This document shows positions 1 to 35,341 of a stretch of 64,000 nt of DNA, piece by piece (within the stretch, counting starts at the first letter, position 1; every line of letters begins with the position of its first letter). The stretch is from Escherichia coli (GTDB lineage Bacteria > Pseudomonadota > Gammaproteobacteria > Enterobacterales > Enterobacteriaceae). Where the stretch lies: the NCBI RefSeq assembly GCF_009931435.1, contig NZ_CP043414.1; one strand, 5' to 3'. A program made the translations under genes and the position numbers. The notes under the pieces are model-generated. The model was not told where the DNA came from and made no database searches. It worked only from the letters and a program-made list of their open reading frames with translations.

Positions 1-2546
1 TCCAGCGCCGCGCGCATTTTCTCCTGACGTTTGGCATCGTAACGCTTCAGGCGAATCAGCGGTTCAATCAGACGTGAAGCCACCTGCGGGTTACGGCTGT
101 TGAGGTCGGTAAGCATTTCCACCAGGAACTGGTAACCGCTGCCATCTTCGGCATGGAACGCTGCCGGGTTGCTGCCCGCAAACGCGCCAATCAACGAACG
201 AATGCGGTTCGGGTTGCTCATGGTAAATGAGCGATGCTGCAACAGACCACGCACCGTCTCCAGCACATTCGCCGCCGGGCTGGTGGCTTGCAGGATAAAC
301 CATTTATCCATCACCAGACCATCCTGATGCCACTTGTCGTCGTACTCCTGCATCAGCGCGTCACGGCATGGCAGCTGTGCAGCAACCGCCGCAGAAAGCG
401 CGGCCAGCGCATCGGTCATATTGTTTGCTTCATGGAACTGCTTGCTTACCAGCACGTCAGCCAGATGCGTTTCACCAAAAGCGAGGAAGCGCAGGCAGGC
501 ATTTCGCAGAGTGCGTTTTGCAATATCTTCATGCTCAACGCGATACTCGCTCTGGTAATTCGCGTTGTAAATAGCCAGCAGCTCATCCGCCAGTTCAGTC
601 GCCAGAGTACGGGTGAGTGCTTCACGCACTTCGGCAATAGCAATCGGATCGATGATATCGAACAGTTCTGCCATTTCATTGACGGAAGGCAGCGTCAGAA
701 TTTCTGCCGCCAGCGCCGGATCAATCCTCTCATCGAGCAGCACCGCGCGGAAAGCGTCAGCCACATGCACCGGCAGAGACAGCGGCTGCCCTTGCTGATG
801 ACGGGCGACGTTGAGCTTGATGTAGGTTGCCAGCAGGCTTTGCGCCGCATCCCAGCGGGAGAAATCATTACGCGCATGACGCATCAGGAAGGTCAGTTGC
901 TGATCGCTCCACTTATATTCCAGTTTCACTGGCGCAGAGAATTCGCACAGCAGTGCGGGCACCGGCTGGAAGTAGACATTATCAAAGACAAAGGTCTGTT
1001 CCGCCTGGGTGACGTTCAGCACCGAATTCACCGGGTGACCGCCTTTCTGCAACGGGATCACTTTGCCTTCGTTGTCATACAGTTCGATGGCAAACGGAAT
1101 ATGCAGCGGCTGTTTTTCTGCCTGATCCGGCGTAGCAGGCGTGCGCTGGCTGATGGTCAGGGTGTACTGCTCGGTTTCCGGATTATAGTCGTCTTTGACG
1201 GTCACAACCGGCGTACCGGACTGGCTGTACCAACGGCGGAAATGGGAGAGATCGACATTTGACGCATCTTCCATCGCCTGAACAAAGTCGTCGCAGGTTG
1301 CCGCACTGCCATCATGGCGCTCGAAATAGAGCTGCATCCCTTTCTGGAAGTTTTCTTCGCCCAGCAGAGTGTGGATCATGCGAATCACTTCCGCGCCCTT
1401 CTCATAAACGGTCAGGGTGTAGAAGTTGTTCATTTCAATAACCATATCCGGGCGGATCGGGTGCGCCATCGGGCTGGCATCTTCCGCAAACTGCAACCCG
1501 CGCATGGTGCGCACGTTGTTGATACGGTTTACTGCGCGGGAACCAAGATCAGAGCTGAACTCCTGATCGCGGAACACGGTTAAGCCTTCTTTCAGGCTGA
1601 GCTGGAACCAGTCGCGGCAGGTCACACGGTTACCGGTCCAGTTATGGAAATATTCATGACCAATAACGCGCTCAATATCGAGATAATCTTTATCGGTCGC
1701 GGTATCGGTGCGCGCCAGTACATACTTAGAGTTAAAGATGTTAAGACCTTTATTCTCCATTGCGCCCATATTGAAGAAATCCACCGCGACGATCATATAG
1801 ATGTCGAGGTCATACTCCAGGCCGAAGCGTTCTTCATCCCATTTCATGGAGTTTTTCAGCGAGGTCATCGCCCATGGCGCACGATCAAGATTGCCGCGAT
1901 CGACGTACAGCTCCAGCGCTACTTCGCGACCAGAACGCGTGGTGAAGGTGTCGCGCAGTACATCAAAGTCACCTGCCACCAGCGCAAACAGGTAGCACGG
2001 TTTCGGGAACGGGTCCTGCCATTGTACCCAGTGGCGTCCATTTTCCAGTTCGCCTTGCGCAACGCGGTTACCGTTGGAAAGCAGGAACGGGTATTTGGTT
2101 TTATCGGCAATAATTTTGGTGGTAAAACGCGCCAGCACGTCCGGGCGGTCGAGATAATACGTAATATGGCGGAAACCTTCGGCTTCACACTGGGTGCAAA
2201 GCGCATCGCCTGACTGATAAAGCCCTTCCAGCGCAGTATTCGCCGCTGGGCTAATTTCATTAACGATCTTGAGCGTAAAACGCTCCGGCAAATTACTGAT
2301 GACCAGTGCGCCCTCTTCTTCTTTCCAGGCGGTCCACGTCTCATCATTAATATGAACAGAAACCAGTTTAAGATCTTCGCCATCAAGACGAAGCGGAGCA
2401 TCTGATGCACCATGACGGACAGCCTGGCTGACCGCGGTAACGACCGTCTTTTGCGCGTCCAGGTCAAAGGTCAAGTCAATATCAGTAATCTGGTAATCCG
2501 GCGCACGATAATCGTGACGGTATTTGGCTTGTGGCTGTTGAGTCAT
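1..2546 (-). CDS. pepN: Aminopeptidase N, partial: the window begins about 22 codons before the stop, so the C-terminal end is missing
   Basis: Reverse-strand translation from the ATG at 2546 reads MTQQPQAKYRH...; the window start translates to the PepN C-terminal region (...SNPNRIRSLIGAFAGSNPAAFHAEDGSGYQFLVEML...). Not in the ORF track because the stop lies outside the window. Confidence 0.93.
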   Translation of the reverse strand, partial: MTQQPQAKYRHDYRAPDYQITDIDLTFDLDAQKTVVTAVSQAVRHGASDAPLRLDGEDLKLVSVHINDETWTAWKEEEGALVISNLPERFTLKIVNEISPAANTALEGLYQSGDALCTQCEAEGFRHITYYLDRPDVLARFTTKIIADKTKYPFLLSNGNRVAQGELENGRHWVQWQDPFPKPCYLFALVAGDFDVLRDTFTTRSGREVALELYVDRGNLDRAPWAMTSLKNSMKWDEERFGLEYDLDIYMIVAVDFFNMGAMENKGLNIFNSKYVLARTDTATDKDYLDIERVIGHEYFHNWTGNRVTCRDWFQLSLKEGLTVFRDQEFSSDLGSRAVNRINNVRTMRGLQFAEDASPMAHPIRPDMVIEMNNFYTLTVYEKGAEVIRMIHTLLGEENFQKGMQLYFERHDGSAATCDDFVQAMEDASNVDLSHFRRWYSQSGTPVVTVKDDYNPETEQYTLTISQRTPATPDQAEKQPLHIPFAIELYDNEGKVIPLQKGGHPVNSVLNVTQAEQTFVFDNVYFQPVPALLCEFSAPVKLEYKWSDQQLTFLMRHARNDFSRWDAAQSLLATYIKLNVARHQQGQPLSLPVHVADAFRAVLLDERIDPALAAEILTLPSVNEMAELFDIIDPIAIAEVREALTRTLATELADELLAIYNANYQSEYRVEHEDIAKRTLRNACLRFLAFGETHLADVLVSKQFHEANNMTDALAALSAAVAAQLPCRDALMQEYDDKWHQDGLVMDKWFILQATSPAANVLETVRGLLQHRSFTMSNPNRIRSLIGAFAGSNPAAFHAEDGSGYQFLVEMLTDLNSRNPQVASRLIEPLIRLKRYDAKRQEKMRAAL

Positions 2547-2764
2547 AAATAACCTTTAGCATCTTTTATAGAGTCTGGTGTTCAGTCTATTCCTGTTGCG
2601 TAAATCGCGCTATGCAGAATCTTCATCTTTTCAGGTACAAACGCCTTTATTGCTACATTTTTATAACATACACCGCGTAATGCCATCGACCAGAAAGGTG
2701 GCATATGGTGTGATCGGGGTTCAATAAATTGCGAAACAAGGTATACTCCAGCAGTTCCTGAAGA

Positions 2765-2782
2765 TGTTTATTGTACTAAACG
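2765..2782. promoter_or_regulatory. Candidate NadR operator (NAD box) in the pepN-pncB divergent intergenic region
   Basis: Sequence TGTTTA-TTGTAC-TAAACG is a near-perfect inverted repeat matching the TGTTTA-N6-TAAACA NAD box, about 30 bp upstream of the pncB ATG; pncB is a known NadR target. Confidence 0.55.
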
Positions 2783-2811
2783 CTCCTGTACGAGGACGCT
2801 ACTGCGCACCT

Positions 2812-4014
2812 ATGACACAATTCGCTTCTCCTGTTCTGCACTCGTTGCTGGATACAGATGCTTATAAGTTGCATATGCAGCAAGCCGTGTTTCATCACTA
2901 TTACGATGTGCATGTCGCGGCGGAGTTTCGTTGCCGAGGTGACGATCTGCTGGGTATTTATGCCGATGCTATTCGTGAACAGGTTCAGGCGATGCAGCAC
3001 CTGCGCCTGCAGGATGATGAATATCAATGGCTCTCAGCCCTGCCTTTCTTTAAAGCCGACTATCTTAACTGGCTACGCGAGTTCCGCTTTAACCCGGAAC
3101 AAGTCACCGTGTCCAACGATAATGGCAAGCTGGATATTCGTTTAAGCGGCCCGTGGCGTGAAGTCATCCTCTGGGAAGTTCCTTTGCTGGCGGTTATCAG
3201 TGAAATGGTGCATCGCTATCGCTCACCGCAGGCCGACGTTGCGCAAGCCCTCGACACGCTGGAAAGCAAATTAGCCGACTTCTCGGCATTAACCGCCGGT
3301 CTTGATATGTCGCGCTTCCATCTGATGGATTTTGGCACCCGCCGACGTTTTTCTCGTGAAGTACAAGAAACCATCGTGAAACGTCTGCAACAGGAATCCT
3401 GGTTCGTAGGCACCAGCAACTACGATCTGGCGCGTCGGCTTTCCCTTACGCCAATGGGAACACAAGCACACGAATGGTTCCAGGCGCATCAGCAAATCAG
3501 TCCGGATCTTGCCAACAGCCAGCGAGCTGCACTCGCTGCCTGGCTGGAAGAATATCCCGACCAACTTGGCATTGCGTTAACCGACTGTATTACCATGGAT
3601 GCTTTCCTGCGAGATTTCGGCGTAGAATTTGCCAGCCGCTATCAGGGCTTGCGTCATGACTCCGGCGACCCGGTTGAATGGGGTGAAAAAGCCATTGCAC
3701 ATTATGAGAAGCTGGGAATTGATCCACAGAGTAAAACGCTGGTTTTCTCTGACAATCTGGATTTACGCAAAGCGGTTGAGCTATACCGCCATTTCTCTTC
3801 CCGCGTGCAATTAAGTTTTGGTATTGGGACTCGCCTGACCTGCGATATCCCCCAGGTAAAACCCCTGAATATTGTCATTAAGTTGGTTGAGTGTAACGGT
3901 AAACCGGTGGCGAAACTTTCTGACAGCCCTGGCAAAACTATCTGCCACGATAAAGCGTTTGTTCGGGCGCTGCGCAAAGCGTTCGACCTTCCGCATATTA
4001 AAAAAGCCAGTTAA
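2812..4014 (+). CDS. pncB: Nicotinate phosphoribosyltransferase
   Basis: ORF 2764..4014; start taken at the internal ATG 2812 giving [24 protein letters not shown]..., 400 aa, matching E. coli PncB. Confidence 0.95.
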
Positions 4015-4022
4015 TATCATCA

Positions 4023-4047
4023 GGGAGCTAATCGGCTCCCTTTTTTT
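4023..4047 (+). terminator. Rho-independent terminator downstream of pncB
   Basis: Hairpin GGGAGC-taatcg-GCTCCC followed by a T7 run. Confidence 0.7.
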
Positions 4048-4182
4048 ACCTTTAATTCCGAAATCTTTCGCTGCATTTGCGAATTCTGCTTGTCTGATTG
4101 CAGATGCCAGGTAACATAGGTATCCCCCCATTTACGGGTGGACAAGTGTTTATTTTTTCCGACTATTAACAGAGAGAATATT

Positions 4183-5583
4183 ATGAGCGTTGTGCCTGTA
4201 GCCGACGTACTCCAGGGCCGCGTAGCCGTTGACAGCGAAGTCACCGTGCGCGGATGGGTACGTACCCGCCGAGATTCAAAAGCTGGCATCTCCTTCCTCG
4301 CCGTTTATGACGGTTCCTGCTTTGATCCTGTACAGGCTGTCATCAATAATTCTCTGCCCAATTACAATGAAGACGTTCTGCGTCTGACCACCGGTTGCTC
4401 GGTCATTGTGACGGGTAAAGTCGTGGCGTCGCCAGGACAGGGGCAACAATTTGAAATTCAGGCCAGCAAGGTTGAAGTTGCTGGTTGGGTTGAAGATCCA
4501 GACACTTACCCGATGGCGGCAAAACGCCACAGCATTGAGTATCTGCGTGAAGTCGCTCACCTGCGTCCGCGCACAAACCTGATTGGTGCCGTCGCGCGCG
4601 TTCGCCATACGCTGGCGCAGGCGCTGCATCGCTTCTTTAACGAGCAGGGATTCTTCTGGGTTTCAACGCCACTGATTACTGCGTCTGATACCGAAGGGGC
4701 TGGCGAAATGTTCCGCGTTTCTACGCTGGATCTGGAAAACCTGCCGCGTAACGATCAGGGCAAAGTGGATTTCGACAAAGACTTCTTTGGTAAAGAGTCT
4801 TTCCTGACCGTATCTGGCCAGTTGAATGGCGAAACCTACGCTTGCGCATTGTCCAAAATTTATACCTTCGGCCCGACTTTCCGTGCTGAAAACTCCAACA
4901 CCAGCCGTCACCTGGCGGAATTCTGGATGCTGGAGCCGGAAGTGGCGTTTGCTAACCTGAACGATATCGCGGGTCTGGCTGAAGCCATGCTGAAATATGT
5001 CTTCAAAGCGGTTCTCGAAGAACGCGCTGACGACATGAAATTCTTCGCTGAACGCGTAGATAAAGATGCCGTTTCACGTCTGGAACGCTTTATTGAGGCC
5101 GATTTCGCGCAGGTGGATTACACCGACGCAGTGACCATTCTCGAAAACTGCGGCAGGAAGTTTGAAAACCCGGTTTACTGGGGCGTCGATCTCTCTTCTG
5201 AGCATGAGCGTTATCTGGCAGAAGAACACTTTAAAGCACCGGTAGTGGTTAAAAACTATCCGAAAGATATTAAAGCGTTCTATATGCGCCTTAACGAAGA
5301 CGGTAAAACCGTTGCGGCTATGGATGTTCTGGCTCCGGGCATCGGTGAAATCATTGGTGGTTCTCAGCGTGAAGAGCGTCTGGACGTGCTGGACGAGCGT
5401 ATGCTGGAAATGGGCCTGAATAAAGAAGATTACTGGTGGTATCGCGATCTGCGTCGCTACGGTACTGTTCCGCATTCCGGTTTCGGTCTTGGTTTTGAAC
5501 GCCTGATTGCTTACGTAACTGGCGTGCAAAACGTGCGTGATGTGATTCCGTTCCCACGTACTCCGCGTAACGCCAGCTTCTAA
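4183..5583 (+). CDS. asnS: Asparagine--tRNA ligase
   Basis: ORF 4138..5583; start at ATG 4183 giving [25 protein letters not shown]..., 466 aa; class II aaRS with anticodon-binding N-terminal domain. Confidence 0.96.
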
Positions 5584-5596
5584 TTTAGCGTCTTCA

Positions 5597-5624
5597 AGAG
5601 CCAGCACCCGCTGGCTCTTTTTTT
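5597..5624 (+). terminator. Rho-independent terminator downstream of asnS
   Basis: Hairpin AGAGCCAGC-accc-GCTGGCTCT followed by a T7 run immediately after the asnS stop. Confidence 0.75.
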
Positions 5625-5735
5625 ATCCTTTCTGTCAAGTTATCTGTTTGTTAAGTCAAGCAATCTATTTGCAACCCCGCCATAACGATCATCCTGTTAC
5701 GGAATATTACACTGCAACATTTGCGCACAAAAAAT

Positions 5736-5767
5736 AATCCGCATTCTTATTGCGGATTAGTTTTTTC
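5736..5767. terminator. Second terminator-like hairpin in the asnS-ompF intergenic region, possibly bidirectional
   Basis: AATCCGCA-ttcttat-TGCGGATT followed by AGTTTTTTCTT, and preceded by an A-rich run so it could also act on the opposite strand; lies about 150 bp beyond the primary asnS terminator. Confidence 0.4.
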
Positions 5768-5974
5768 TTAGCTGATAGCACAATTTTCATACTATTTTTT
5801 GGCGTTCTGGATGTCTGAACGAGGATTTAATGCCAGGTCGATAAAGTTTCCATCAGAAACAAAATTTCCTTTTAGTTAATTTAAATATAAGGAAATCATA
5901 TAAATAGATAAAAATTGCTGTAAATATCATCACGCTTCTATGGAAATATGACGGTGTTCACAAAGTTCCTTAAA

Positions 5975-6040
5975 TTTTACTTTTAGTTACATATTTTTTC
6001 TTTTTGAAACCAAATCTTTATCTTTGTAGCACTTTCACGG
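5975..6040 (+). promoter_or_regulatory. ompF promoter-proximal OmpR-binding region (F1-F3 sites)
   Basis: AT-rich block TTTACTTTTAGTTACATATTTTTTCTTTTTGAAACCAAATCTTTATCTTTGTAGCACTTTCACGG resembles the tandem OmpR boxes known upstream of ompF; a -10-like AAAGAT lies near 6065, consistent with a leader of roughly 110 nt. Confidence 0.55.
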
Positions 6041-6184
6041 TAGCGAAACGTTAGTTTGAATGGAAAGATGCCTGCAGACACATAAAGACACCAAACTCTC
6101 ATCAATAGTTCCGTAAATTTTTTTTGACAGAACTTATTGACGGCAGTGGCAGGTGTCATAAAAAAACCATGAGGGTAATAAATA

Positions 6185-22373: not shown

Positions 22374-23606
22374 TTATGCGACGGGGTCTATTTCCCAGCC
22401 GGCGCGGCAATCAGTAAAGAGGCCTTGCGGGCAGCGTCCTAATGTCACCCGCGTTGCCTGCTGCCAGTTAGCGAAATCAGTAATCGCCTGACGTAACCCT
22501 TTTTGCAGCGTTGTCGTTGGTTTAATGCCTTCCTGTAACCACAGAGAGATAACTTCAAGGATGCCTGTCTGGCGATGCATTTTGGCATCCATTCGCCCAA
22601 CTAATTGCCCACGATGTAATAACGGCAGAACAAAATAGCCATACTGGCGTTTCGGCGCTGGGGTATAGCACTCCAGCCGGTAGCTAAAATCAAAAAGCTG
22701 CTCCGCGCGTTTGCGATCCCAGACAACAGGATCAAAAGGCGAAAGTACCGCGCTGTGCGTTGCAGTGAGCTTTCCGGCGAGCGCGCGTTCGAGTAGCGGC
22801 AGCAAATCAGCATGCAACCAAAGATTGCCCAATTTTTCAACATGCACAGCAATGATTTGCTGCTGTTCAGCCCTCGCTTCGCGCCAAGCCGCCAGTGCCG
22901 GACGTTTCAGCCGATAGTAATCTGCCAGCCACTGTTCGCGGAATATGCCCAGGCTACGCGCACTGTTATCCAGCATGATGATTTCTGCTTCTGTTTGCGA
23001 AACGAGATCGCGCTCATCATCACAGTCAGGCATGACACGGTGGGTTAAATCATAAACGCGCTGGAAGTTGCGCCGTTCAATCACCATCACCTTTCCAGCA
23101 GTAAATAAACCTTCCAGATGCCGTTTATGCGGCTTCCATTCCCACCAGCCGCTTGCACCTTTACGAGAATGCTCGAAATCGGCTGAACGTACCGGCCCCT
23201 TATCATGAATATGTTGAATTAACTGTGCAATTTCTGCCGCATGTTCCTGCATCCAGGCGTCTTTGTATTTCCAGCCCATTTTTTCAGGTGCCAGCATGCG
23301 GTGGCGAATAAGACGAAAATCGCTACGTGGCATAAAGCAGGCTTCATGCGCCCAGTATTCCATTAATTCGCCACGCGCCAGAGACTCATCCAACCACTGC
23401 GCAGGATAATTTCCCAGACGACTGAAAAGCACCAGATATGGGCTACGGGCAACAATATTGATGGTATCAATTTGCAGCAAGGACATGCGGGAAATCGTTG
23501 CCAGAATATCTTCCAACGACGCTCGACGGCGGGGTTTGTTTAACAGGCCTTGCGCAGCAAGGTGAAGATTACGCGCATCAGCAAGGGAGAGGTGCGGCAG
23601 CGACAT
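22374..23606 (-). CDS. ycaQ: Winged-helix DNA glycosylase YcaQ (AlkZ-like, interstrand crosslink repair)
   Basis: 410-aa ORF matching YcaQ. Confidence 0.9.
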   Translation of the reverse strand: MSLPHLSLADARNLHLAAQGLLNKPRRRASLEDILATISRMSLLQIDTINIVARSPYLVLFSRLGNYPAQWLDESLARGELMEYWAHEACFMPRSDFRLIRHRMLAPEKMGWKYKDAWMQEHAAEIAQLIQHIHDKGPVRSADFEHSRKGASGWWEWKPHKRHLEGLFTAGKVMVIERRNFQRVYDLTHRVMPDCDDERDLVSQTEAEIIMLDNSARSLGIFREQWLADYYRLKRPALAAWREARAEQQQIIAVHVEKLGNLWLHADLLPLLERALAGKLTATHSAVLSPFDPVVWDRKRAEQLFDFSYRLECYTPAPKRQYGYFVLPLLHRGQLVGRMDAKMHRQTGILEVISLWLQEGIKPTTTLQKGLRQAITDFANWQQATRVTLGRCPQGLFTDCRAGWEIDPVA

Positions 23607-23642
23607 TCATGACTCCATCAATCGAACGCTGCCGCGGCGTAA

Positions 23643-24629
23643 CTAGTTGCCAGAAGCCAGCGAGGTTAGTTGCGCAAGCAGTTTCGCTGGTTCATCGCCT
23701 GAAAGCTGTGCGTCAACAGGCAAATACCACCAATTTTCATCTGCAAAGGCCCGGCATTTCACCGCATCTTTTTCAGTCATTACTAGCGTTTGCCCGTCGC
23801 TTACCAACGCGCTGACATCCGTATAATTCAAAGACTGATGATCGGCCAGTGGTACACATTTTTCCGGTTGTACGCCGCACATCTTCAGCGTGGCAAAAAA
23901 GCGCGGCGGATGCCCAATCCCCGCCATCGCCACCACATGTTCAAGTTGAGCAACGTCACAACGCGTACCGGTACGTAAATTCACCGCCTGCCCCGGCAGC
24001 AGATGCATGGGGATTTCACCGCTGCGGGGGACACCGCCGTTGACGATTACCGCATCAACCGACTTTAAGCGCCCCGCTCGCTCACGCATTGGCCCCGCCG
24101 GCAACCACCAGCCATTGCCAAAGCGACGCACGCCATCAATAACGACGATTTCCACATCACGCGCCAGACGATAATGCTGTAAACCGTCGTCGGTTACGAT
24201 GATCTGCACATCAGGGTGTTGCGCCAGAATGGCTTTTACCGCATCAGAACGCACGGGAGAAACCGCAACAGGCGCGCCAGTGCGTTGATAAATCAACACT
24301 GGTTCATCACCCGCCTGTGCTGTGGTGGTATCTACCGACAATAACAGCGGATAAGATTCAGCCTTACCGCCATATCCCCGGGACACGACTCCCACGCGAA
24401 TACCGCGCTGTTGCAACTGTTCCACCAGCCAGACAACGACCGGAGTTTTTCCGTTGCCGCCAGCGGTGAGATTACCAACCACGACAACCGGTACGGGGGC
24501 ACGCCAGGCGCGCTTCAATTTTAGTTTATAGCAAAGACGGATCGCGCCACTTATCAGGCCATACAACCAGGAGAGTGGCAGCAATAGCCGCCACAAAGGG
24601 GATTCACCAGACCAGATTTTTTCGATCAT
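23643..24629 (-). CDS. lpxK: Tetraacyldisaccharide 4'-kinase (lipid A biosynthesis)
   Basis: 328-aa ORF; Walker A-like [12 protein letters not shown]; matches LpxK. Confidence 0.96.
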
Positions 24630-26374
24630 TGGCCAAACTGCATTTTGTGAAGTTGCGCGTAAACGCCACGGTGCTCAAGCAAATCGTTATGCGTACCGCG
24701 TTCCACAATGACACCATCCTCGACGACCACGATTTCGTCTGCTTTTTCAATAGTAGACAAACGGTGGGCAATCACCAGAGAGGTACGGTTTTTCTGCAAC
24801 TCATCCAGTGCCGCCTGAATCGCACGTTCAGATTCGGTATCCAGCGCCGAGGTAGCTTCGTCCAGAATCAGAATCGGGCTATCACGCAACAAGGCTCGAG
24901 CGATGGCAATACGCTGACGCTGACCGCCAGAGAGCAGCACGCCGTTTTCACCAATCACTGTATCGAGACCGTTATCCATCTTATTGATGAAGTCCATGGC
25001 GTAGGCCATACGCGCCGCTTCTTCAATTTGCTCACGGCTGTACTGTTCTGTCCGTGCGTAAGCAATGTTGTTGGCAACCGTATCGTTAAACAGATGGACA
25101 TTCTGCGACACCAGAGCAACCTGGTTACGTAAAGACGCCAGGGTATACTCGCGCAGATCGTGACCATCCATCAGGATTTCGCCTTCATCAATATCGTAAA
25201 AACGTGTGATTAGGCTGGCGATGGTTGATTTACCTGAACCAGAGCGTCCAACCAGAGCGACCGTTTTTCCTGCCGGAATTTTCAGGTTGATGTTACGCAA
25301 TGCGGGTACATCACGTCCCGGATAAGTAAAGGTGACATTGCGGAATTCTACGTCACCAGTCGCACGTTCGAGCACACGCTTACCTTCGTCTTTCTCCTGC
25401 TCACTGTCCAGAATGGTAAACAGCGTCTGACAAGCCGCCATACCGCGCTGGAACTGGGCGTTAACGTTGGTCAGCGATTTCAGCGGACGCATCAGTGCAA
25501 TCATTGAAGAGAAAACAACGGTAATCGTACCGGCAGTCAGGTTATCCATAACACTTGGGAAGCTCGCCGCATACAGAACAAACGCCAGCGCCAAAGAGGC
25601 GATCAGCTGAATGATCGGATCAGAGATGGAAGAGGCTGAAACCATTTTCATCCCCTGAAGACGCATTCGGTTACTGACTTTATCGAAGCGTTTCGTTTCC
25701 ACTTCCTGACCACCGAAAATCAATACTTCTTTGTGGCCCTTCAGCATTTGTTCTGCGCTGGTGGTCACCTGACCCATGGTGTTCTGCATGTTTTTACTGA
25801 TGTTGCGAAAACGCTTCGATACGACACGAATCGCAATCGAAACAATCGGTGCCAGCACAATTAAAATGATCGACAGTTGCCAGCTGTAATAGAACATCAT
25901 GATGAACAGGCCGATGATCGACGCACCTTCACGCACAACAGTAATCAGTGCGCCGGAAGAAGAAGAAGCAACCTGTTCGGAATCGTAGGTGATACGTGAC
26001 AACAGCGTACCCGTTGACTGTTTGTCAAAGAATGAAACTGGCATTCCCATCATGTGACCAAACAGGCGGCGACGCATGGTCATTACCACCTTTCCTGATA
26101 CCCAGGAGATACAGTAGCTGGAGACATAGCTGGTGATACCACGTAAAATCATTAGCCCGATCACCACCAGCGGCATCCACACCAGCACGGAGCGATCTGT
26201 TTTACCAAAGCCATCATCAAGAAGTGGCTTAAGGAGCGATAACATGAAGGTATCGCTGGCTGCGTTGAGGATTAACGCTACGCCCGCCACGATCAGACCC
26301 GCTTTAAAAGGCGCAATGGTTGGCCACAGTCGGCGGAACGTCTGCCACGTAGAGAGATCTTTGTCGTTATGCAT
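24626..26374 (-). CDS. msbA: Lipid A/LPS flippase, ABC transporter MsbA
   Basis: 582-aa ORF; six-helix transmembrane domain plus nucleotide-binding domain with Walker [10 protein letters not shown] and signature LSGGQRQR; 4-nt overlap with lpxK. Confidence 0.97.
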
Positions 26375-26410
26375 TCAAAAAACCAGCATTTGTTGAAATA
26401 GCCGCATATT

Positions 26411-28675
26411 CTACCCGTTATCCACTGGCACGCCAAACCACTGATGATACCAACGAGGTAAAATTTGCTCTCTGAGGCTGCTAATCCGCCAGCCTTGCGC
26501 TGAAAAATTGACCGTTATTTGACCCTGATGTGGAGTATCAAGCCACTTATAACCCTGTTGTTGATAGCGATGTTTAACTTTGCTTGAGGGCAGTCGCCAT
26601 GCGTTATAGCGCGATGCCGATGCGAGTGCCACTTTTCCATTCACTCGCTGAATTAATGGCAACGATGATGAGGTATTACTGCCATGGTGAGGTACCTGAA
26701 GTAATGTTGCCTGCATTTGCTGCCAGTAACGGCTTAGCATCTTTTGTTCAGCGGGGGCTTCAATATCACCGGTTAGGAGAATGCTATTCGTCCCGTCATC
26801 AACCTTAACCACACAGGAATGGTTATTTCCTTTATCGTTGCTACCTTGTAAAGGCCAGTGCACGCTGAAACGCAATCCTTGCCATTGCCACGCTTCGCCA
26901 CGCACACAGGGCTGATGATGTTCCCAGCTTAAAGGGCTTCTGACCCATAACGTCGGCCAGGCTCGTAATATCGAGTCCAGCCCTCCCCGATGATCCAGAT
27001 GTTCATGACTAAGAATGACGCCTTCTGGTTCAAGATTATGCCAGCGTAGCCAGGGGATAATCAGTTGTTGCCCACTATCCCCCTCCGGCCAGGCCAGTCC
27101 GGTGTCATAGAGAATCGCTTTACCGTTTCTGGCTATCACCATTGCCAGCCCTTGCCCGACATCAAGCATGTACACCTGCCACGCGTCAGGCCGAGGTTTT
27201 TGCCACAGCGGCCAGCACATCAGCAAGCCTCCAGCCACACACATTGCCGGCAACGCTCGCCAGGCGTTTAATCGCCATACCACCAGTAAGAACCATGGGG
27301 AAAATGTTAGCCATTGCCAACGTTCAGCAATGTTGATCCACCCTTCCGGCAAACTCTTTAACCCCCAGAAAAGTAAAGCCAAAGACCGGTCGGCAAGAAA
27401 CCATAACCCTTGTTCCAGAATAAACGGCCCGCTTAAATGCACAACCATCGCGGCGAGAATCAACGGAACCGTGATAAATGTCACCAGGGGAATTGCAAAA
27501 AGATTTGCAATAAACGAGGTCAGACTAATGCCATGAAATATGACAATTTGCACGGGCATAAGCAGGAGGGTGATTCCCAGTTGCAGATGGATGAGGGAAA
27601 CAACCGCGCGCAATGCTGGCGGCAGCTGCCACTCCGGACAGGGAAACCACTGATACCAAAAAATCAGCGCCGCTACCGCAGCGGCAGAGAGCCATAAACT
27701 TTGCGAAAGAATGGCAACAGGATCCATCAGCAAAATTGCCGCCAGACAACATATCCATACATCCCAGCCACTCCATTGTCGTCCACTTAACTTAAGCATT
27801 CCCCAAATGGCAAGCGCCACCACGGTACGCAATGCAGGAGGCTGCATTCCCGTTAGCCAGGCGTAAAAAGCAGCACAGCAGATTCCACCAATTAATGGCA
27901 TTTGCCAGTGGATCCAGCACCCAGGCAGAAAAACTTGCCCACCGCGAATGAGTCCTGCAGCCAGCAACGCCGCAAAAGCGATGTGCAATCCTGATATCGC
28001 CATTAAATGCGCCGTTCCAGTATCACGCATGATATTTTTGATTTCTTTGGGGACGGATAACCGTTCCCCCATACCTAATCCAAGAATAACCGCGTTCCAC
28101 ATATAGGGTTGCAGCGTTGTTTGTAGTGACGCCAGATACTGTGCACGCAGGCTACAATTCGGTTCAATGACACTTGCCTGCAGAAAACGGCCGGTGAGCG
28201 GTTGATGCTGGGCAATGGCATAACGCTGGCTATCAAAGCCGCCATCATTAAGTTGGCCATGAACTGCACGAACTTTGAGTTTCATTGACCATACTTGTCC
28301 GGCACAAACCGCTTGCGGAAGATATTCGCCATACAGTACGAGGCCTGGCGCAGGGAATATACGTCGACCTTGTAGATGAGTAATTTGACCGTAATGAGTG
28401 GTCATGCCGTCAGTAGCAGTGATCTCAACTATTGCATCCTGCGTCGCGCCAGTTAAGGTTTCTCCTGCCCACAAAATTTGCTTTGCCGCTAATATGCCCC
28501 AAAGAAAAAACAGCAGCGTCAGCGCGATATAACGGACGGCTTTAACAGGAATAAATGCCAGTACGCAGGCGAAGACTGTCAGAAACGCAAGGGTTAATGT
28601 CCCAGGCAATTGGGGCAAAATCAACAACGGAAAAATTCCGCAAATTATGCTTACGCCGACTGTCGTTATTTTCAT
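26411..28675 (-). CDS. ycaI: ComEC/Rec2-family inner membrane protein with C-terminal metallo-beta-lactamase domain
   Basis: 754-aa polytopic ORF with HEHLDHRGG and HHGS motifs in the C-terminal domain; matches YcaI. Confidence 0.9.
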   Translation of the reverse strand: MKITTVGVSIICGIFPLLILPQLPGTLTLAFLTVFACVLAFIPVKAVRYIALTLLFFLWGILAAKQILWAGETLTGATQDAIVEITATDGMTTHYGQITHLQGRRIFPAPGLVLYGEYLPQAVCAGQVWSMKLKVRAVHGQLNDGGFDSQRYAIAQHQPLTGRFLQASVIEPNCSLRAQYLASLQTTLQPYMWNAVILGLGMGERLSVPKEIKNIMRDTGTAHLMAISGLHIAFAALLAAGLIRGGQVFLPGCWIHWQMPLIGGICCAAFYAWLTGMQPPALRTVVALAIWGMLKLSGRQWSGWDVWICCLAAILLMDPVAILSQSLWLSAAAVAALIFWYQWFPCPEWQLPPALRAVVSLIHLQLGITLLLMPVQIVIFHGISLTSFIANLFAIPLVTFITVPLILAAMVVHLSGPFILEQGLWFLADRSLALLFWGLKSLPEGWINIAERWQWLTFSPWFLLVVWRLNAWRALPAMCVAGGLLMCWPLWQKPRPDAWQVYMLDVGQGLAMVIARNGKAILYDTGLAWPEGDSGQQLIIPWLRWHNLEPEGVILSHEHLDHRGGLDSILRAWPTLWVRSPLSWEHHQPCVRGEAWQWQGLRFSVHWPLQGSNDKGNNHSCVVKVDDGTNSILLTGDIEAPAEQKMLSRYWQQMQATLLQVPHHGSNTSSSLPLIQRVNGKVALASASRYNAWRLPSSKVKHRYQQQGYKWLDTPHQGQITVNFSAQGWRISSLREQILPRWYHQWFGVPVDNG

Positions 28676-28831
28676 GCACCTCTCCCTGTTTATGGAAAGT
28701 GTGCAACTTATTTGAACGGCTGTCTGGTGGTAGTTTTATGTTCCCCGAGGTGCGTTCAGAAGAATTTAACGAGAAAGTGAAAACTGCTCAAAACTCTGCG
28801 AGGCAGCTTCCAGTTTCAGATTAGAGAAATG

Positions 28832-28853
28832 AAAAAAGCACCCGACAGGTGCT
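28832..28853 (-). terminator. Rho-independent terminator downstream of ihfB
   Basis: Minus strand reads AGCACC-tgtcg-GGTGCT followed by TTTTTTC. Confidence 0.65.
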
Positions 28854-28881
28854 TTTCTCGCGTTCAAGTTTGGGTAAAAAC

Positions 28882-29166
28882 TTAACCGTAAATATTGGCG
28901 CGATCGCGCAGTTCTTTACCTGGTTTAAAGTGAGGAACGTATTTTCCTTCCAGTTCTACTTTATCGCCAGTCTTCGGATTACGTCCGGTACGTGGTGCGC
29001 GGTAGTGCAAAGAGAAACTGCCGAAACCGCGGATTTCAATACGCTCGCCCTGCGCAAGAGTCGAGGCCATATGCTCCAGCATCTCTTTTACTGCATCTTC
29101 AACCGTCTTGGCGGGAATGTGCGATTGCTGGGTGGCAAGTCTTTCTATCAATTCTGACTTGGTCAT
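28882..29166 (-). CDS. ihfB: Integration host factor beta subunit
   Basis: 94-aa [38 protein letters not shown]...; matches IhfB. Confidence 0.97.
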
Positions 29167-29221
29167 GATTCCTCCGGTTCCTTAAAGGCAAATTAAGCGG
29201 CTGCTGTTGCTGCATTGATTA

Positions 29222-29241
29222 AGGGCGGCCGTAGCCGCCCT
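29222..29241 (-). terminator. GC-rich hairpin downstream of rpsA, possible partial terminator
   Basis: AGGGCGGC-cgta-GCCGCCCT; no strong U-tract follows on the minus strand. Confidence 0.35.
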
Positions 29242-29325
29242 TAGTGCTTGATTACAGGACGAAACCTGCAATCTGTCAAGTAAACTCAACAAACTTCGGA
29301 ATAAAAATCCCGAAGAGTCAGAGAA

Positions 29326-30999
29326 TTACTCGCCTTTAGCTGCTTTGAAAGCTTCAGCCATTGCGTTGTTGGAGAAGTTTGCATCTTCCTGTTTGTTAAC
29401 AGTTGCGATTGCATCTTTCTCGTCAGCTTCGTCTTTCGCACGAACAGACAGGCTGATTGCGCGGTTTTTACGATCAACGCCGGTGAATTTAGCTTCAACT
29501 TCGTCGCCAACGCTCAGAACCAGGGTAGCGTCTTCAACGCGGTCACGGGATGCTTCAGAAGCACGCAGGTAACCTTCAACGCCGTCAGCCAGTTCTACGG
29601 TTGCGCCTTTAGCGTCAACTGCAGTTACTTTACCGGTTACGATAGCGCCTTTCTTGTTCAGAGCAACCCAGTTGTTGAACGGATCTTCTGCGAGCTGTTT
29701 AACGCCCAGGGAGATACGTTCACGTTCTGCGTCAACCTGCAGAACAACTGCAGCGATTTCGTCGCCTTTTTTGTATTCACGAACTGCTTCTTCGCCTGCA
29801 ACGTTCCAGGAGATGTCAGACAGGTGAACCAGGCCGTCGATGCCGCCGTCCAGGCCGATGAAGATACCGAAGTCAGTGATAGACTTGATTTTACCTTCAA
29901 CACGGTCACCCTTGTTGTGGGTTTCCGCGAACTGCTGCCACGGGTTAGCTTTGCACTGTTTCAGACCCAGGGAGATACGACGACGTTCTTCGTCGATATC
30001 CAGAACCATAACTTCCACTACATCGCCAACGTTAACAACTTTGGACGGGTGGATGTTTTTGTTGGTCCAATCCATTTCGGAAACGTGTACCAGGCCTTCA
30101 ACGCCTTCTTCGATTTCAACGAAGCAGCCGTAGTCGGTCAGGTTGGTCACGCGACCAGTCAGTTTGGTACCTTCCGGATAACGTTTAGCGATAGCTACCC
30201 ACGGATCTTCGCCCAGCTGTTTCAGGCCCAGGGATACACGGGTACGTTCGCGGTCGAACTTCAGCACTTTAACAGTGATTTCGTCGCCCACGTTGACGAT
30301 TTCGCTTGGATGCTTAACGCGTTTCCAGGCCATATCAGTGATGTGCAGCAGGCCGTCAACGCCGCCCAGATCAACGAATGCACCGTAGTCAGTGAGGTTC
30401 TTAACGATACCTTTAACTTCCATGCCTTCCTGCAGGTTTTCCAGCAGCTGATCGCGCTCTGCGCTGTTTTCGGATTCGATAACGGCACGACGAGAAACAA
30501 CAACGTTGTTGCGCTTCTGATCCAGCTTGATTACTTTGAATTCAAGCTCTTTGCCTTCCAGGTGCAGAGTGTCACGCACCGGACGAACGTCTACCAGAGA
30601 ACCTGGCAGGAACGCACGAATACCGTTCAGCTCAACAGTGAAGCCGCCCTTAACTTTGCCGTTGATAACACCGGTAACAGTTTCAGCATCTTCGTAAGCT
30701 TTTTCCAGCGTGATCCAGGCTTCGTGACGTTTAGCTTTCTCACGGGACAGCAGAGTTTCACCGAAGCCGTCTTCTACTGCGTCCAGAGCAACGTCAACTT
30801 CGTCACCTACCTGGATTTCCAGCTCGCCCTGGGCGTTTTTGAACTGCTCAGCCGGGATGGCGGACTCAGATTTCAGACCAGCGTCAACCAGTACTACGTC
30901 TTTGTCGATAGCAACAACAACGCCACGAACGATAGAACCCGGGCGGGTTTCGATTTCTTTTAAGGACTCTTCAAAGAGTTGAGCAAAAGATTCAGTCAT
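29326..30999 (-). CDS. rpsA: 30S ribosomal protein S1
   Basis: 557-aa [49 protein letters not shown]... with six S1 repeats; matches RpsA. Confidence 0.98.
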
Positions 31000-31109
31000 G
31001 TTTAATCTTCAGGTTTATATTTAACGTCCACCTGGCTCCATGCCGGATGGGGTTGTTTAACATACCCGCTGTCATTCCATTGCAACGGGGGTACTGCAAA
31101 TTCGGTCGC

Positions 31110-31793
31110 TTATGCGAGAGCCAATTTCTGGCGCGCGTATTGTAGCGCTTTTTCAATCACTTGCTCAATGCTTAAGGTGGTGGAATCCAACACTAAAGCA
31201 TCGGCTGCCGGAACCAGTGGCGCTACCGCTCGGTTACGATCGCGGTCGTCGCGTTCTTTGATCTCGGCCAAAAGGCGCTCAAAGTTAACACTAAAGCCCT
31301 TCTCCTGCAACTGTAGCATGCGGCGATGCGCACGTTCTTCCGAGGAGGCGTCAAGGAAAATTTTCACTGGCGCATCAGGGAATACCACCGTTCCCATATC
31401 GCGGCCATCGGCAATCAAGCCTGGTAATTCGCGAAACGCGCGTTGGCGACGCAATAATGCTTCACGAACGCGTGGGAATGCCGCGACTTGTGAAGCAGCA
31501 TTCGCCACTTCCTGAGTACGAATTTCGCCGCTGACATCTTCCCCTTCGAGGATCACTTCCAGATTGCCATTGGTCGACACAAAACGGACATCCAGATGGG
31601 ATGCCAGCGGCACGAGCGCATCTTCCGATGCAACATCAACATGGTGATGTAATGCCGCCAGTGCCAGTACGCGATAAATTGCACCCGAGTCCAGCAGATG
31701 CCATTGCAACGCTTCCGCCATAGCCTTACACAAGGTGCCTTTCCCTGCACCGCTTGGGCCATCAATGGTAATAACCGGGGCAATTGCCGTCAT
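31110..31793 (-). CDS. cmk: Cytidylate kinase
   Basis: 227-aa ORF with P-loop GPSGAGKGT; matches Cmk. Confidence 0.97.
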
Positions 31794-34252: not shown

Positions 34253-35341
34253 TTAGCCGTGACGGCGTTCGAACTCAATCATGAAGTCTGTCAGCGCTTT
34301 AACGCCTTCCAGAGGCATTGCGTTATAAATTGACGCACGCATACCGCCGACCACACGATGCCCTTTCAGGGCATGCAGCCCCGCAGCAAAAGACTCTTCA
34401 AGGAACAATTTGTCAAGCGCACTGTCCGCCAACTGGAACGGCACGTTCATCCGCGAACGGTTAGCTTTCGCCACGTCATTGCGGTAGAAATCGCTGTTAT
34501 CAATCACCCCATACAGCAGTTCTGCTTTTTGCTGATTGATTTTATCCATTGCAGCTACACCGCCGTTCGCTTTCAGCCATTTAAAGACCAGACCAGACAG
34601 ATACCAGGCAAATGTCGGCGGCGTGTTAAACATTGAGTCGTTATCGTTAAGGATGGAATAATCCAGAATCGACGGACAAGCGATATTCGCTTTACCCAGT
34701 AAGTCTTCACGAACGATGACGATTGTCAGGCCCGCCGGGCCGATATTTTTCTGTGCGCCAGCATAAATCACACCGTAACGACTGACGTCAATTGGACGGG
34801 AAAGAATCGTTGAAGAGAAGTCGGCTGCAACCACCACTTCTTTACCAAAGTCTGGCGTTTCGTCGATGGCGATACCATCGATGGTCTCATTTGGGCAGTA
34901 ATGCATATAAGCGGCATTATCAGAGAGCTGCCATTCACGCATTGGCTTAACCGCACGAAGACCATCAACAGTCACTTTGGCGTCAAAGACATTTGGCTTG
35001 CAGTATTTTTTCGCTTCTTTAATGGCACTTGCCGCCCAGTAACCGGCATCAACATAATCTGCAGTGGTTTTATCACCAAGAATATTCAGCGGAACAGCAG
35101 CAAACTGACCGCGACCACCGCCGTGGCAGAACAATACTTTATAGTTGGAGGGGATATTAAGAAGATCGCGAAAATCCTTCTCGGCTTCCTCTGCAACCTG
35201 AATGAACTCTTTACCACGGTGGCTCACTTCCATCACCGACGTACCAAGACCGTTCCAGTCGCGCAGTTCCTGTTGAGCCTGTTTAAGCACCTCTGCCGGT
35301 AGCATTGCCGGACCAGAACTAAAATTGAAGATTTGAGCCAT
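34253..35341 (-). CDS. serC: Phosphoserine/phosphohydroxythreonine aminotransferase
   Basis: 362-aa [49 protein letters not shown]...; matches SerC. Confidence 0.97.

Follow-up and report, generated by a model that had tools for sequence, protein, structure and literature searches.

ComEC/Rec2 is a channel and nuclease through which transformable bacteria take in single-stranded DNA, and it is the DNA translocase in competent species of the Vibrionaceae and Pasteurellaceae. Relatives include the ComEC proteins of Firmicutes (B. subtilis; Moorella/Neomoorella, with PDB 9ic4 and a cryo-EM structure), which have a three-domain plan and an 11-transmembrane (TM) topology in which three TM helices precede the OB fold. 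9ic4 is a biochemically active ComEC nuclease domain, and in B. subtilis the metal ligands of motif II are required for nuclease activity and efficient transformation (PMC8579336). Full-length gamma-proteobacterial Rec2/ComEC chains have also been solved (9vc9, 9vcb and 9vcf), and these have the order OB, competence and metallo-beta-lactamase (MBL) domain. The E. coli ortholog of ComEC/Rec2 is ycaI, a gene that has long been annotated and is already known.

The window analyzed here is a 64,000-nucleotide stretch of E. coli contig NZ_CP043414.1. An ORF in it is annotated as ycaI (K-12 b0913), with ihfB and msbA-lpxK on either side:

26411..28675, minus strand: ycaI coding sequence, ComEC/Rec2 ortholog, 754 aa, ATG start to TAG stop
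24626-26374, minus strand: msbA, essential, downstream of ycaI
23643-24629, minus strand: lpxK, essential, downstream of ycaI

The gene order on the minus strand is aroA-ycaL-cmk-rpsA-ihfB-ycaI-msbA-lpxK-ycaQ-ycaR-kdsB. Both the ORF map and the annotated neighbors bear out the statement of a previous, sequence-only reading that ycaI comes after ihfB and before msbA-lpxK in the direction of transcription. The title of that reading placed ycaI after the lipid A genes, which holds in plus-strand coordinates only; by transcription ycaI precedes msbA-lpxK, as the body of the same reading said. The ycaI-msbA-lpxK-ycaQ genes have been reported to be co-transcribed as an operon (PMC10328246). Antisense ORFs within ycaI (e.g., 27168-27536, plus strand, 122 aa) were taken to be spurious shadows of the long ORF, and a scan of positions 23000-31500 against Rfam found no RNA family.

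The K-12 protein (NP_415433) is encoded by the same gene, with the same length of 754 aa, position and neighbors, and is 95.1% identical to that of the window (94.9% at the nucleotide level). None of the 37 amino acid substitutions falls at a family-invariant position, and motif II, the stop codon and the 3' end are identical. E. coli 2020CK-00188 alone is 100% identical to the stretch, which is annotated there as 'ycaI: ComEC family protein'; the next-best genome has 97.5% identity in ycaI. We considered whether this strain carries an unusually divergent allele of ycaI and rejected this as a special feature, as the flanking msbA-lpxK, too, has further matches of only 99.3% and 98.9%. The strain belongs to a rare lineage, and ycaI is evolving about twice as fast as its neighbors.

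YcaI scores 1096.4 bits against the ComEC/Rec2 equivalog model TIGR00361 of NCBIfam (cut-off 190; model positions 1-663 of 663) and 1310 bits, end to end, against NF008580 (cut-off 969). The solved full-length Rec2/ComEC chains match residues 82-747 with E-values of 1e-77 to 1e-78. These domain and family scores put the ComEC assignment far beyond chance, and given the scores and the synteny it is very unlikely that YcaI lies outside the gamma-proteobacterial Rec2 clade. Firmicute ComEC is distant in sequence (E-values of 1e-19 to 1e-20).

YcaI is an intact three-module ComEC protein. The AlphaFold2 model (pLDDT 94.7, pTM 0.92) and the domain matches divide it as follows:

28451..28675, minus strand: three N-terminal TM helices (3-18, 26-40 and 45-74), residues 1-75, from the AlphaFold2 model
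28151..28450, minus strand: periplasmic OB fold (DUF4131), residues 76-175, five-stranded, strands 4 and 5 separated by a helix (149-155)
27191..28150, minus strand: competence (channel) domain, residues 176-495, with PF03772 on residues 201-467 (27275-28075)
26435..27190, minus strand: predicted periplasmic MBL-like nuclease domain, residues 496-747, with PF00753 on residues 505-686 (26618-27163)
26981..27007, minus strand: MBL motif II, H557-E-H559-L-D561-H562-R-G-G

The sequence-only reading had described a 754-aa polytopic protein with a C-terminal MBL domain and the layout of ComEC, and Pfam, NCBIfam and AlphaFold2 all recover that architecture: three TM helices, a five-stranded OB fold, the channel helices with a small beta-hairpin (382-384/446-448), and the MBL domain. 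The predicted elements are those described for the Neomoorella ComEC cryo-EM structure. Their order agrees with published full-length ComEC (11 TM helices, non-spanning helices, a small beta-sheet flanking NS6/NS7, and both soluble domains in the periplasm), a comparison of a prediction with a text description. That reading had also proposed a search for the OB and competence domains, and both are intact. The OB fold is below threshold in Pfam taken alone (DUF4131, 21.9 bits; cut-off 31.6). We count it as present because of profile and structure evidence: the family profile of the OB segment matches solved Rec2 9vc9 at 1e-22, DUF4131 is matched by 57 of 59 segments homologous to this region, and AlphaFold2 models give a five-stranded barrel whose strands 4 and 5 are separated by a helix (pLDDT about 91-95). 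The isolated OB model has OB-fold neighbors in Foldseek, with weak E-values of 0.02-0.3.

Loss of the pore-forming competence domain, which that reading had named as grounds for abandoning its view, is not seen. PF03772 aligns over positions 2-265 of 270 (E=2e-53), and of the 28 columns in this domain with 90% conservation or more in the family, 26 are kept, the two exceptions being A-to-G and A-to-T. The domain contains the AISGLH motif (residues 226-231), and G229, H231, R283, N391 and P404, each invariant in 135 sequences, are all present.

The MBL domain is similarly complete. PF00753 aligns over positions 2-193 of 196 (E=4e-24), and the family-invariant metal ligands D505, H557, D561, H562, D637 and H663 are all present. 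The ligands needed for nuclease activity and transformation in Firmicute ComEC are found in YcaI, whose own nuclease activity is predicted and whose host, unlike the setting of Firmicute ComEC, is not known to be naturally competent. Over the whole protein, 62 of the 64 columns with at least 90% conservation among 129 relatives are kept, including all 35 in the MBL domain. The top Foldseek match of this domain is 9ic4 (target-normalized TM 0.82, rmsd 2.5 A, 27% identity, E-value of 3e-15); the second neighbor is the pneumococcal phosphorylcholine esterase Pce/CbpE (4e-9). Motif II is HxHxDH in YcaI (HEHLDHRGG, residues 557-565) and HxDxDH in Firmicute ComEC. All 135 family members have H557, D561 and H562, and position 559, H in YcaI, is D in 109 of them and H in 25. 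The chains of 9vc9, 9vcb and 9vcf (799-837 aa, 45-85 aa longer than YcaI) read SHGANAHAGG at motif II; at the first of the two altered positions YcaI has H559. We rejected natural loss of motif II in these proteins: D561 is invariant in 135 natural sequences, and the pattern is that of the engineered D-to-A 'DADA' nuclease-dead mutant (Silale et al.).

ycaI evolves fast, yet it is under purifying selection, with dN/dS about 0.15. Of 5426 complete E. coli genomes, 5423 have it at 80% or more query coverage, and of 60 rows sampled evenly across the ranking, 59 match in one piece over the full length and carry the annotation ComEC family protein. Ten diverse alleles were all intact, with no internal stops, a dN/dS of 0.155 and no variation at family-invariant residues. 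Against Citrobacter and Salmonella, dN/dS is at most about 0.07, with dS saturated. Across all four protein modules the values are 0.05-0.2, residues 1-75 being the least constrained part (dN 0.42 vs Citrobacter), and the protein stays at exactly 754 aa from Escherichia through to Klebsiella and Kosakonia. Because the protein evolves about ten times faster than MsbA (by dN), the constraint is weak relative to that on housekeeping genes.

Upstream of the coding sequence are the following features:

28679..28686, minus strand: Shine-Dalgarno sequence GGGAGAGG of ycaI, 4-11 nt upstream of the ATG
28831..28859, minus strand: ihfB intrinsic terminator, with a stem conserved in six taxa
28797..28812, minus strand: candidate CRP-S-like site TGGAA-N6-TCGCA with one canonical half-site, roughly 130 nt before the ATG

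Within the Shine-Dalgarno sequence, ACAGGGAGG is kept across six taxa. The terminator would insulate ycaI from rpsA-ihfB transcription, and in Salmonella the ihf terminators are effective (PMC8942017). No sigma-70 consensus promoter for ycaI was found in the ihfB-ycaI spacer, and a search by eye for a -10 at the canonical distance from the CRP-like site gave no consistent solution. In the candidate site, E. coli, Citrobacter and Salmonella agree at every position of both half-sites and vary throughout the spacer. Matches to the CRP-S pattern (TGCGA-N6-TCGCA, up to two mismatches) are not above chance in the window (39, with 43.9 expected), and the Pasteurellaceae locus has none with up to one mismatch; it is the conservation pattern of the one candidate, not the number of matches, that is suggestive. 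Since ihfB ends in a terminator, no sigma-70 consensus promoter was found and the CRP-S-like site is weak, basal expression of ycaI is probably low. Induction by Sxy has been stated generically for 'all competence-gene homologues' of E. coli (PMC3330819).

The 3' end of ycaI contains a further element:

26408..26436, minus strand: sigma-70 promoter-like element TTGGCG-17-TAGAAT for msbA, within the 3' end of ycaI

The first three letters of the -10 hexamer TAGAAT are the stop codon of ycaI (TAG, 26411-26413).

The promoter-like element hardly varies among the Enterobacterales, from E. coli to Proteus. An equivalent in Vibrio (TAGGCA-17-TAGAAT) overlaps the comEC stop, and the comEC/msbA junction of Mesocricetibacter has a promoter-like TGGATA-17-TACAAT spanning the comEC stop. 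In the last 20 or so codons of ycaI, 70-75% of third positions are invariant, vs 16.6% gene-wide, making this the top-scoring window of the gene. In a project to build a UAG-free strain, the ycaI TAG alone among 95 was not replaceable by the standard route (PMC4434889), and published disruptions of ycaI that are tolerated keep the 3' end in place. The essential msbA-lpxK genes seem to have a promoter of their own in the 3' end of ycaI. A broader proposal is that the 3' end of comEC/ycaI also acts as the msbA-lpxK promoter, with the stop codon inside the -10, and that this coding/regulatory overlap has been kept from Vibrio to Escherichia, locking comEC to the lipid A export genes; we regard this as possible but doubtful. 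If true, the overlap would help explain why the synteny is so old and why lineages that do not transform still have the locus. Since no terminator was found between ycaI and msbA, transcription could read through, and, if the proposal is true, Sxy-driven ycaI transcripts would run into msbA-lpxK, coupling induction of DNA uptake to the capacity for LPS export.

The placement of ycaI beside the lipid A genes is ancestral. The block comEC-msbA-lpxK-ycaR-kdsB recurs at the Cedecea-like, Proteus, Klebsiella, Citrobacter, Salmonella, Vibrio algivorus and Mesocricetibacter loci, a context that supports orthology with comEC/rec2 of the EPV clade (Enterobacterales-Pasteurellales-Vibrionales). We take it to be ancestral because V. 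algivorus and Mesocricetibacter intestinalis (Pasteurellaceae) have msbA-lpxK-ycaR-kdsB downstream of comEC, as in E. coli. The upstream neighbors differ: DUF2062 in Vibrio, dksA in the Pasteurellaceae genome and ihfB in the Enterobacterales. The Vibrio and Mesocricetibacter proteins are about 30-32% identical to YcaI over the full length and 36-38% locally. Because genomes of families with competent members share this placement, it tells us nothing specific to E. coli.

Taken as a whole, the evidence makes it likely, in our judgment, that ycaI is an intact, selectively kept ComEC/Rec2 ortholog that imports ssDNA in Sxy/CRP-controlled uptake. It could instead be a decaying leftover of ancestral competence whose protein product is no longer selected. 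No known conditions make E. coli naturally transformable, and several observations hint at decay: the dN/dS of ycaI vs K-12 (0.152) is the highest of the 12 genes in its block (others 0-0.118); in 2070 of 5425 genomes its nucleotide identity is just 90-95%, with msbA-lpxK above 95% in all; strain 90-3040 has ycaI knocked out by insertion of a Mu-like prophage; and the list of pseudogenes in Salmonella DT2 includes ycaI. However, the dN/dS values within E. coli and between genera are far below 1, and the unchanged length, the 62 retained family-conserved columns, the ten intact alleles and the 59 full-length rows all speak for a maintained protein. The selection data already contradict decay, and we give this explanation very little credence.

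We also consider it unlikely that ycaI is kept mainly for the msbA promoter or leader in its 3' end and for operon integrity, rather than for DNA import. The invariant third positions of the last codons, the promoter-like elements over the stop in the Enterobacterales and Vibrio, the TAG that resisted replacement by the standard route and the 3' ends spared in tolerated disruptions are what such a role predicts, and it accounts for the synteny. However, about 40 bp suffices for a promoter, leaving unaccounted for the purifying selection over four modules, the retention of catalytic and channel residues and the conserved length; that is, the intactness of the protein. A role in the envelope, in which YcaI would act on something other than DNA, e.g., as a phosphodiesterase on a lipid or glycan substrate, draws on the conserved linkage with Kdo2-lipid A genes, the description of ycaI-msbA-lpxK-ycaQ as a single operon (PMC10328246), the Pce/CbpE esterase as second-best structural neighbor of the MBL domain, and a ycaI nonsense mutant with altered membrane-permeability read-outs (PMC12844161). 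However, the same linkage occurs in genomes of families whose competent species use comEC/rec2 for DNA translocation, the embedded msbA promoter is a simpler account of it, the ComEC nuclease domain is by far the best structural match (3e-15 vs 4e-9), and the OB fold and channel are retained. A non-DNA role in the envelope is therefore highly improbable.

By analogy with the known systems, YcaI is most likely the inner-membrane ssDNA importer and nuclease of the Sxy/CRP-controlled uptake machinery. By homology, it would sit in the inner membrane with its OB fold and Mn-dependent MBL nuclease domain facing the periplasm. When the Sxy/CRP regulon is on, dsDNA would enter the periplasm via the HofQ secretin and the PpdD pilus and be held there by ComEA (YbaV). 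The OB fold would then engage the DNA and the MBL domain degrade one strand, while the other would pass as ssDNA through the helix channel of the competence domain into the cytoplasm, where it may rarely be recombined or its nucleotides recycled.

Sxy induces the competence homologs of E. coli, and DNA uptake is Sxy- and hofQ-dependent (PMC3330819). Transformation was detected only with artificial sxy expression and lambda Red (PMC3330819), in keeping with the view in the sequence-only reading that E. coli is not considered naturally competent. Its description of the role of ycaI as only partly understood is also fair: we found no report in the literature of ycaI in the Sxy-dependent assay (Sxy plus lambda Red), where hofQ alone was tested. 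ycaI is dispensable for spontaneous plasmid transformation on plates, a dsDNA route (PMC6135910, PMC3306417), and growth experiments with a partial deletion showed no noticeable phenotype (PMC3890546). In DH5alpha, a ycaI nonsense mutant had reduced transformation with CaCl2 and ultrasound, along with the altered permeability read-outs (PMC12844161); this result does not fit the ssDNA pathway, and its mechanism is unexplained. Polar or promoter effects on msbA-lpxK could pass for ycaI phenotypes, including those of 'membrane permeability'. ycaI knock-outs must spare the last 60 bp or so, where the likely promoter of msbA, of which the ycaI TAG is part, is located.

Our results confirm that the standard annotation is right and that ycaI is not a pseudogene. 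They bear on an old and well-recognized question: why E. coli and its relatives keep a complete, selected DNA-uptake apparatus that is seemingly unused. The intact nuclease ligands and channel residues of YcaI predict that its loss would give a clear phenotype in the Sxy plus lambda Red assay.

ycaI is an already known gene and is annotated correctly. It is a single open reading frame at 26411-28675 on the minus strand of the window (754 amino acids, ATG start, TAG stop), and its ATG is preceded by the ribosome-binding site GGGAGAGG. Residues 557-565 (window 26981-27007) are HEHLDHRGG, so both the size and the motif named in the sequence-only reading are borne out. The K-12 orthologue is b0913, and E. 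coli 2020CK-00188, which matches at 100% DNA identity, carries the annotation ycaI, 'ComEC family protein'. Gene order on the minus strand is aroA-ycaL-cmk-rpsA-ihfB-ycaI-msbA-lpxK-ycaQ-ycaR-kdsB, which places ycaI, as had been claimed, between ihfB (upstream) and the essential lipid A genes msbA-lpxK (downstream). The description of ycaI as lying 'after the lipid A genes' holds in plus-strand coordinates only; in the direction of transcription ycaI precedes them, as the body of that reading itself had it.

YcaI is almost certainly a ComEC/Rec2 orthologue. [quoted passage not shown] In Pfam, the Competence domain (E 2e-53, positions 2-265 of 270) and the Lactamase_B domain (E 4e-24, positions 2-193 of 196) are full length, and DUF4131, the OB fold, is below the gathering score (21.9 vs 31.6 bits). 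A profile built from a 59-sequence alignment of the segment homologous to residues 72-178 matched the solved full-length Rec2 chains 9vc9, 9vcb and 9vcf at 1e-22 to 1e-20, and 57 of these 59 segments individually matched DUF4131 (top match 1.4e-17). Two NCBIfam equivalogs also match YcaI over their full length, TIGR00361 ComEC_Rec2 (1096 bits, cut-off 190) and NF008580 (1310 bits, cut-off 969). The AlphaFold2 model, made from an alignment of 135 sequences (mean pLDDT 94.7, pTM 0.92), predicts, in order:

Residues 3-18, 26-40 and 45-74: three transmembrane helices
Residues 78-171: five-stranded barrel, strands 4 and 5 being separated by a short helix (149-155)
After the barrel: non-spanning and spanning helices in series
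Residues 382-384 and 446-448: small two-stranded sheet flanking two long helices
Then two further transmembrane helices, followed by the metallo-beta-lactamase (MBL) nuclease domain, residues 499-747

In the structure search, the MBL domain came out closest to the ComEC nuclease domain crystallised as 9ic4 (E 3e-15, target-normalised TM 0.82, rmsd 2.5 A), ahead of phosphodiesterases, RNase J and CPSF73. Structural matches to the isolated OB model (pLDDT 91) are all OB folds, with weak E-values of 0.02-0.3; they include AspRS anticodon-binding domains, Lin28 cold-shock domains, RPA and the Rim1 SSB.

The residues expected of a nuclease and a channel are also present. The 135-sequence alignment reaches relatives of about 26% identity, and its invariant columns, all kept in YcaI, include D505, D524, H557, D561, H562, N617, S620, C621, D637, H663, G665 and S666 in the MBL domain and G229, H231, R283, N391 and P404 in the membrane domain. 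At position 559, D is found in 109 of the 135 sequences and H in 25; YcaI carries H there, and its metal-binding motif II therefore has the classical form HxHxDH, in contrast to the commoner ComEC form HxDxDH. With close Enterobacteriaceae left out, 64 columns are at least 90% conserved across 129 relatives; YcaI departs from two of them (A199G and A284T) and keeps the other 62, among them all 35 conserved MBL columns. Alanines at the two motif II positions ('DADA') abolish the nuclease activity of Moorella ComEC and decrease B. subtilis transformation 10-100-fold (PMC8579336). The closest solved Rec2 chains, 9vc9_A, 9vcb_A and 9vcf_A, read SHGANAHAGG at motif II, which is easily mistaken for natural degeneration of the active site. 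We rejected natural loss of the motif in these chains, as the sequence is that of this engineered nuclease-dead D-to-A double mutant ('DADA').

Of 5426 complete E. coli genomes, 5423 carry ycaI at a coverage of at least 80%, and 59 of 60 matches sampled evenly down the genome ranking are full length, in a single piece and annotated as ComEC family protein. The exception, strain 90-3040, is a rare natural knock-out: its ycaI (locus 4001-5224 onward), annotated as a pseudogene, is broken after about nucleotide 1224 by the end of a Mu-like prophage, and the insert has genes for a Com-family regulator and a DNA cytosine methyltransferase. Each of ten diverse alleles (the window, K-12, APEC, O157:H7, O111:H8, a soil isolate and others) runs to 754 codons without an internal stop, and motif II and the last 30 nt are identical in all ten. 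Their mean dN is 0.015 and mean dS 0.097 (ratio 0.155), and none of 24 family-invariant positions varies. Against K-12, the dN/dS of ycaI (0.152) is the highest in its 12-gene block (neighbours 0-0.118). Against Citrobacter and Salmonella, dN is 0.20-0.21 for ycaI, 0.02 for msbA and 0.13 for lpxK; the dN/dS of ycaI is at most about 0.07 because dS is saturated. Among its modules, constraint is strongest on the MBL domain and weakest on TM1-3. In 2070 genomes ycaI has only 90-95% nucleotide identity; msbA-lpxK exceeds 95% in all. Together, dN/dS, allele intactness and near-universal presence argue that ycaI is fast-evolving yet clearly under purifying selection, and is not a relic. At one end of the block, serC (window 34253-35341) has a dS of 0.246 vs K-12, two to fifteen times that of adjacent genes (0.015-0.11), which suggests a recombination boundary or imported segment.

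The placement of ycaI by msbA-lpxK is ancestral. A Cedecea-like genome (51% identity) has the order ihfB-comEC-msbA-lpxK-(ycaQ)-ycaR-kdsB, as do Proteus, Klebsiella, Citrobacter and Salmonella; comEC-msbA-lpxK-ycaR-kdsB, with different upstream neighbours, is present in Vibrio algivorus and Mesocricetibacter intestinalis (Pasteurellaceae). The linkage is therefore older than the Enterobacterales/Pasteurellales/Vibrionales split. It is not universal, since a relative of 38% identity (loci 1620-5212 and 2532-6124) has comEC followed by lpxK-ycaR-kdsB without msbA, with ihfB still upstream. ycaI-msbA-lpxK-ycaQ is treated as an operon in the literature (PMC10328246). ycaQ (window 22374-23606), an AlkZ-like interstrand-crosslink DNA glycosylase gene, is at its end, and thus the two lipid A genes are flanked by two DNA-related genes; ycaQ is in the Escherichia, Citrobacter, Klebsiella and Cedecea-like loci and not in the Proteus, Vibrio and Pasteurellaceae blocks.

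The synteny is probably frozen by a promoter-like element, read from the sequence, inside the 3' end of ycaI:

26436-26408, minus strand: promoter-like TTGGCG-17-TAGAAT, for essential msbA

It is the sole sigma-70-like promoter match in 3.2 kb, the first three bases of its -10 hexamer are the ycaI TAG stop (26413-26411), and the ycaI-msbA junction has no predicted terminator. Hardly any nucleotide changes are seen, from E. coli through to Proteus, over the last ~17 ycaI codons and the 36 nt that separate them from msbA, even though protein identity within the family is just 61-73%. Of the third-codon positions in the final 20 codons, 70-75% are invariant vs 16.6% over the whole gene, making this the top window of ycaI. 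Vibrio has an equivalent element, TAGGCA-17-TAGAAT, overlapping its comEC stop, and in the Pasteurellaceae locus a promoter-like site straddles the comEC/msbA junction. In a UAG-removal project, the ycaI TAG was the sole codon of 95 that resisted direct replacement (PMC4434889). The element is a warning for builders of ycaI mutants.

Upstream, the ihfB-ycaI spacer contains:

28831-28859: strong, conserved intrinsic terminator after ihfB
28797-28812, minus strand: candidate CRP-like site TGGAA-GCTGCC-TCGCA, right half of CRP-S type

Effective termination at the ihf terminators has been reported in Salmonella (PMC8942017), and no sigma-70 consensus promoter was found in the 150-nt spacer. In the ycaI leader (minus strand), CACACT at 28697-28704 is invariant in 6 of 6 Enterobacterales compared (E. 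coli form GCACACTT) and CCAGACA at 28716-28722 is kept in four of the six; read together as cAGACA-17-CACACT, they would give a very weak promoter some 20 nt before the ATG. The CRP-like site is a possible weak CRP-S site that is not significant by count, the CRP-S pattern search giving 39 matches vs 43.9 expected. Both pentamers are invariant and all six spacer bases vary among E. coli, Citrobacter rodentium and Salmonella enterica. Each 8-16 kb locus has a single copy of the exact pattern TGGAA-N6-TCGCA, in every case at this position, and a Cedecea-like genome has TGCGA-N6-TTCCT there, the same arrangement in opposite orientation. The candidate site would fit with Cameron & Redfield, who reported that competence orthologues of Enterobacteriaceae have CRP-S motifs upstream.

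YcaI is intact, conserved and selectively maintained, and its nuclease ligands and channel residues are complete. Palchevskiy & Finkel reportedly described eight 'DNA as nutrient' genes, ycaI not among them. E. coli expressing Sxy and lambda Red undergoes hofQ-dependent natural transformation (PMC3330819), so its uptake machinery works. ycaI is dispensable for spontaneous plasmid transformation on plates, a route thought to involve dsDNA (PMC6135910, PMC3306417), and the gene tolerates a cassette insertion or the loss of its first 170 codons, such alleles being used as neutral linked markers. A DH5alpha ycaI nonsense mutant is reported to transform less well by chemical and ultrasound methods (PMC12844161).

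The sequence-only reading was accurate, and domains, residues, selection and context support its ComEC-homolog interpretation. We infer that YcaI quite likely performs the inner-membrane step of Sxy/CRP-induced uptake, operating in E. coli. The OB fold would bind incoming DNA, the MBL domain would degrade one strand and the competence domain would conduct the other. The linkage to msbA-lpxK is common to families with naturally competent species, and nothing in it is specific to E. coli.
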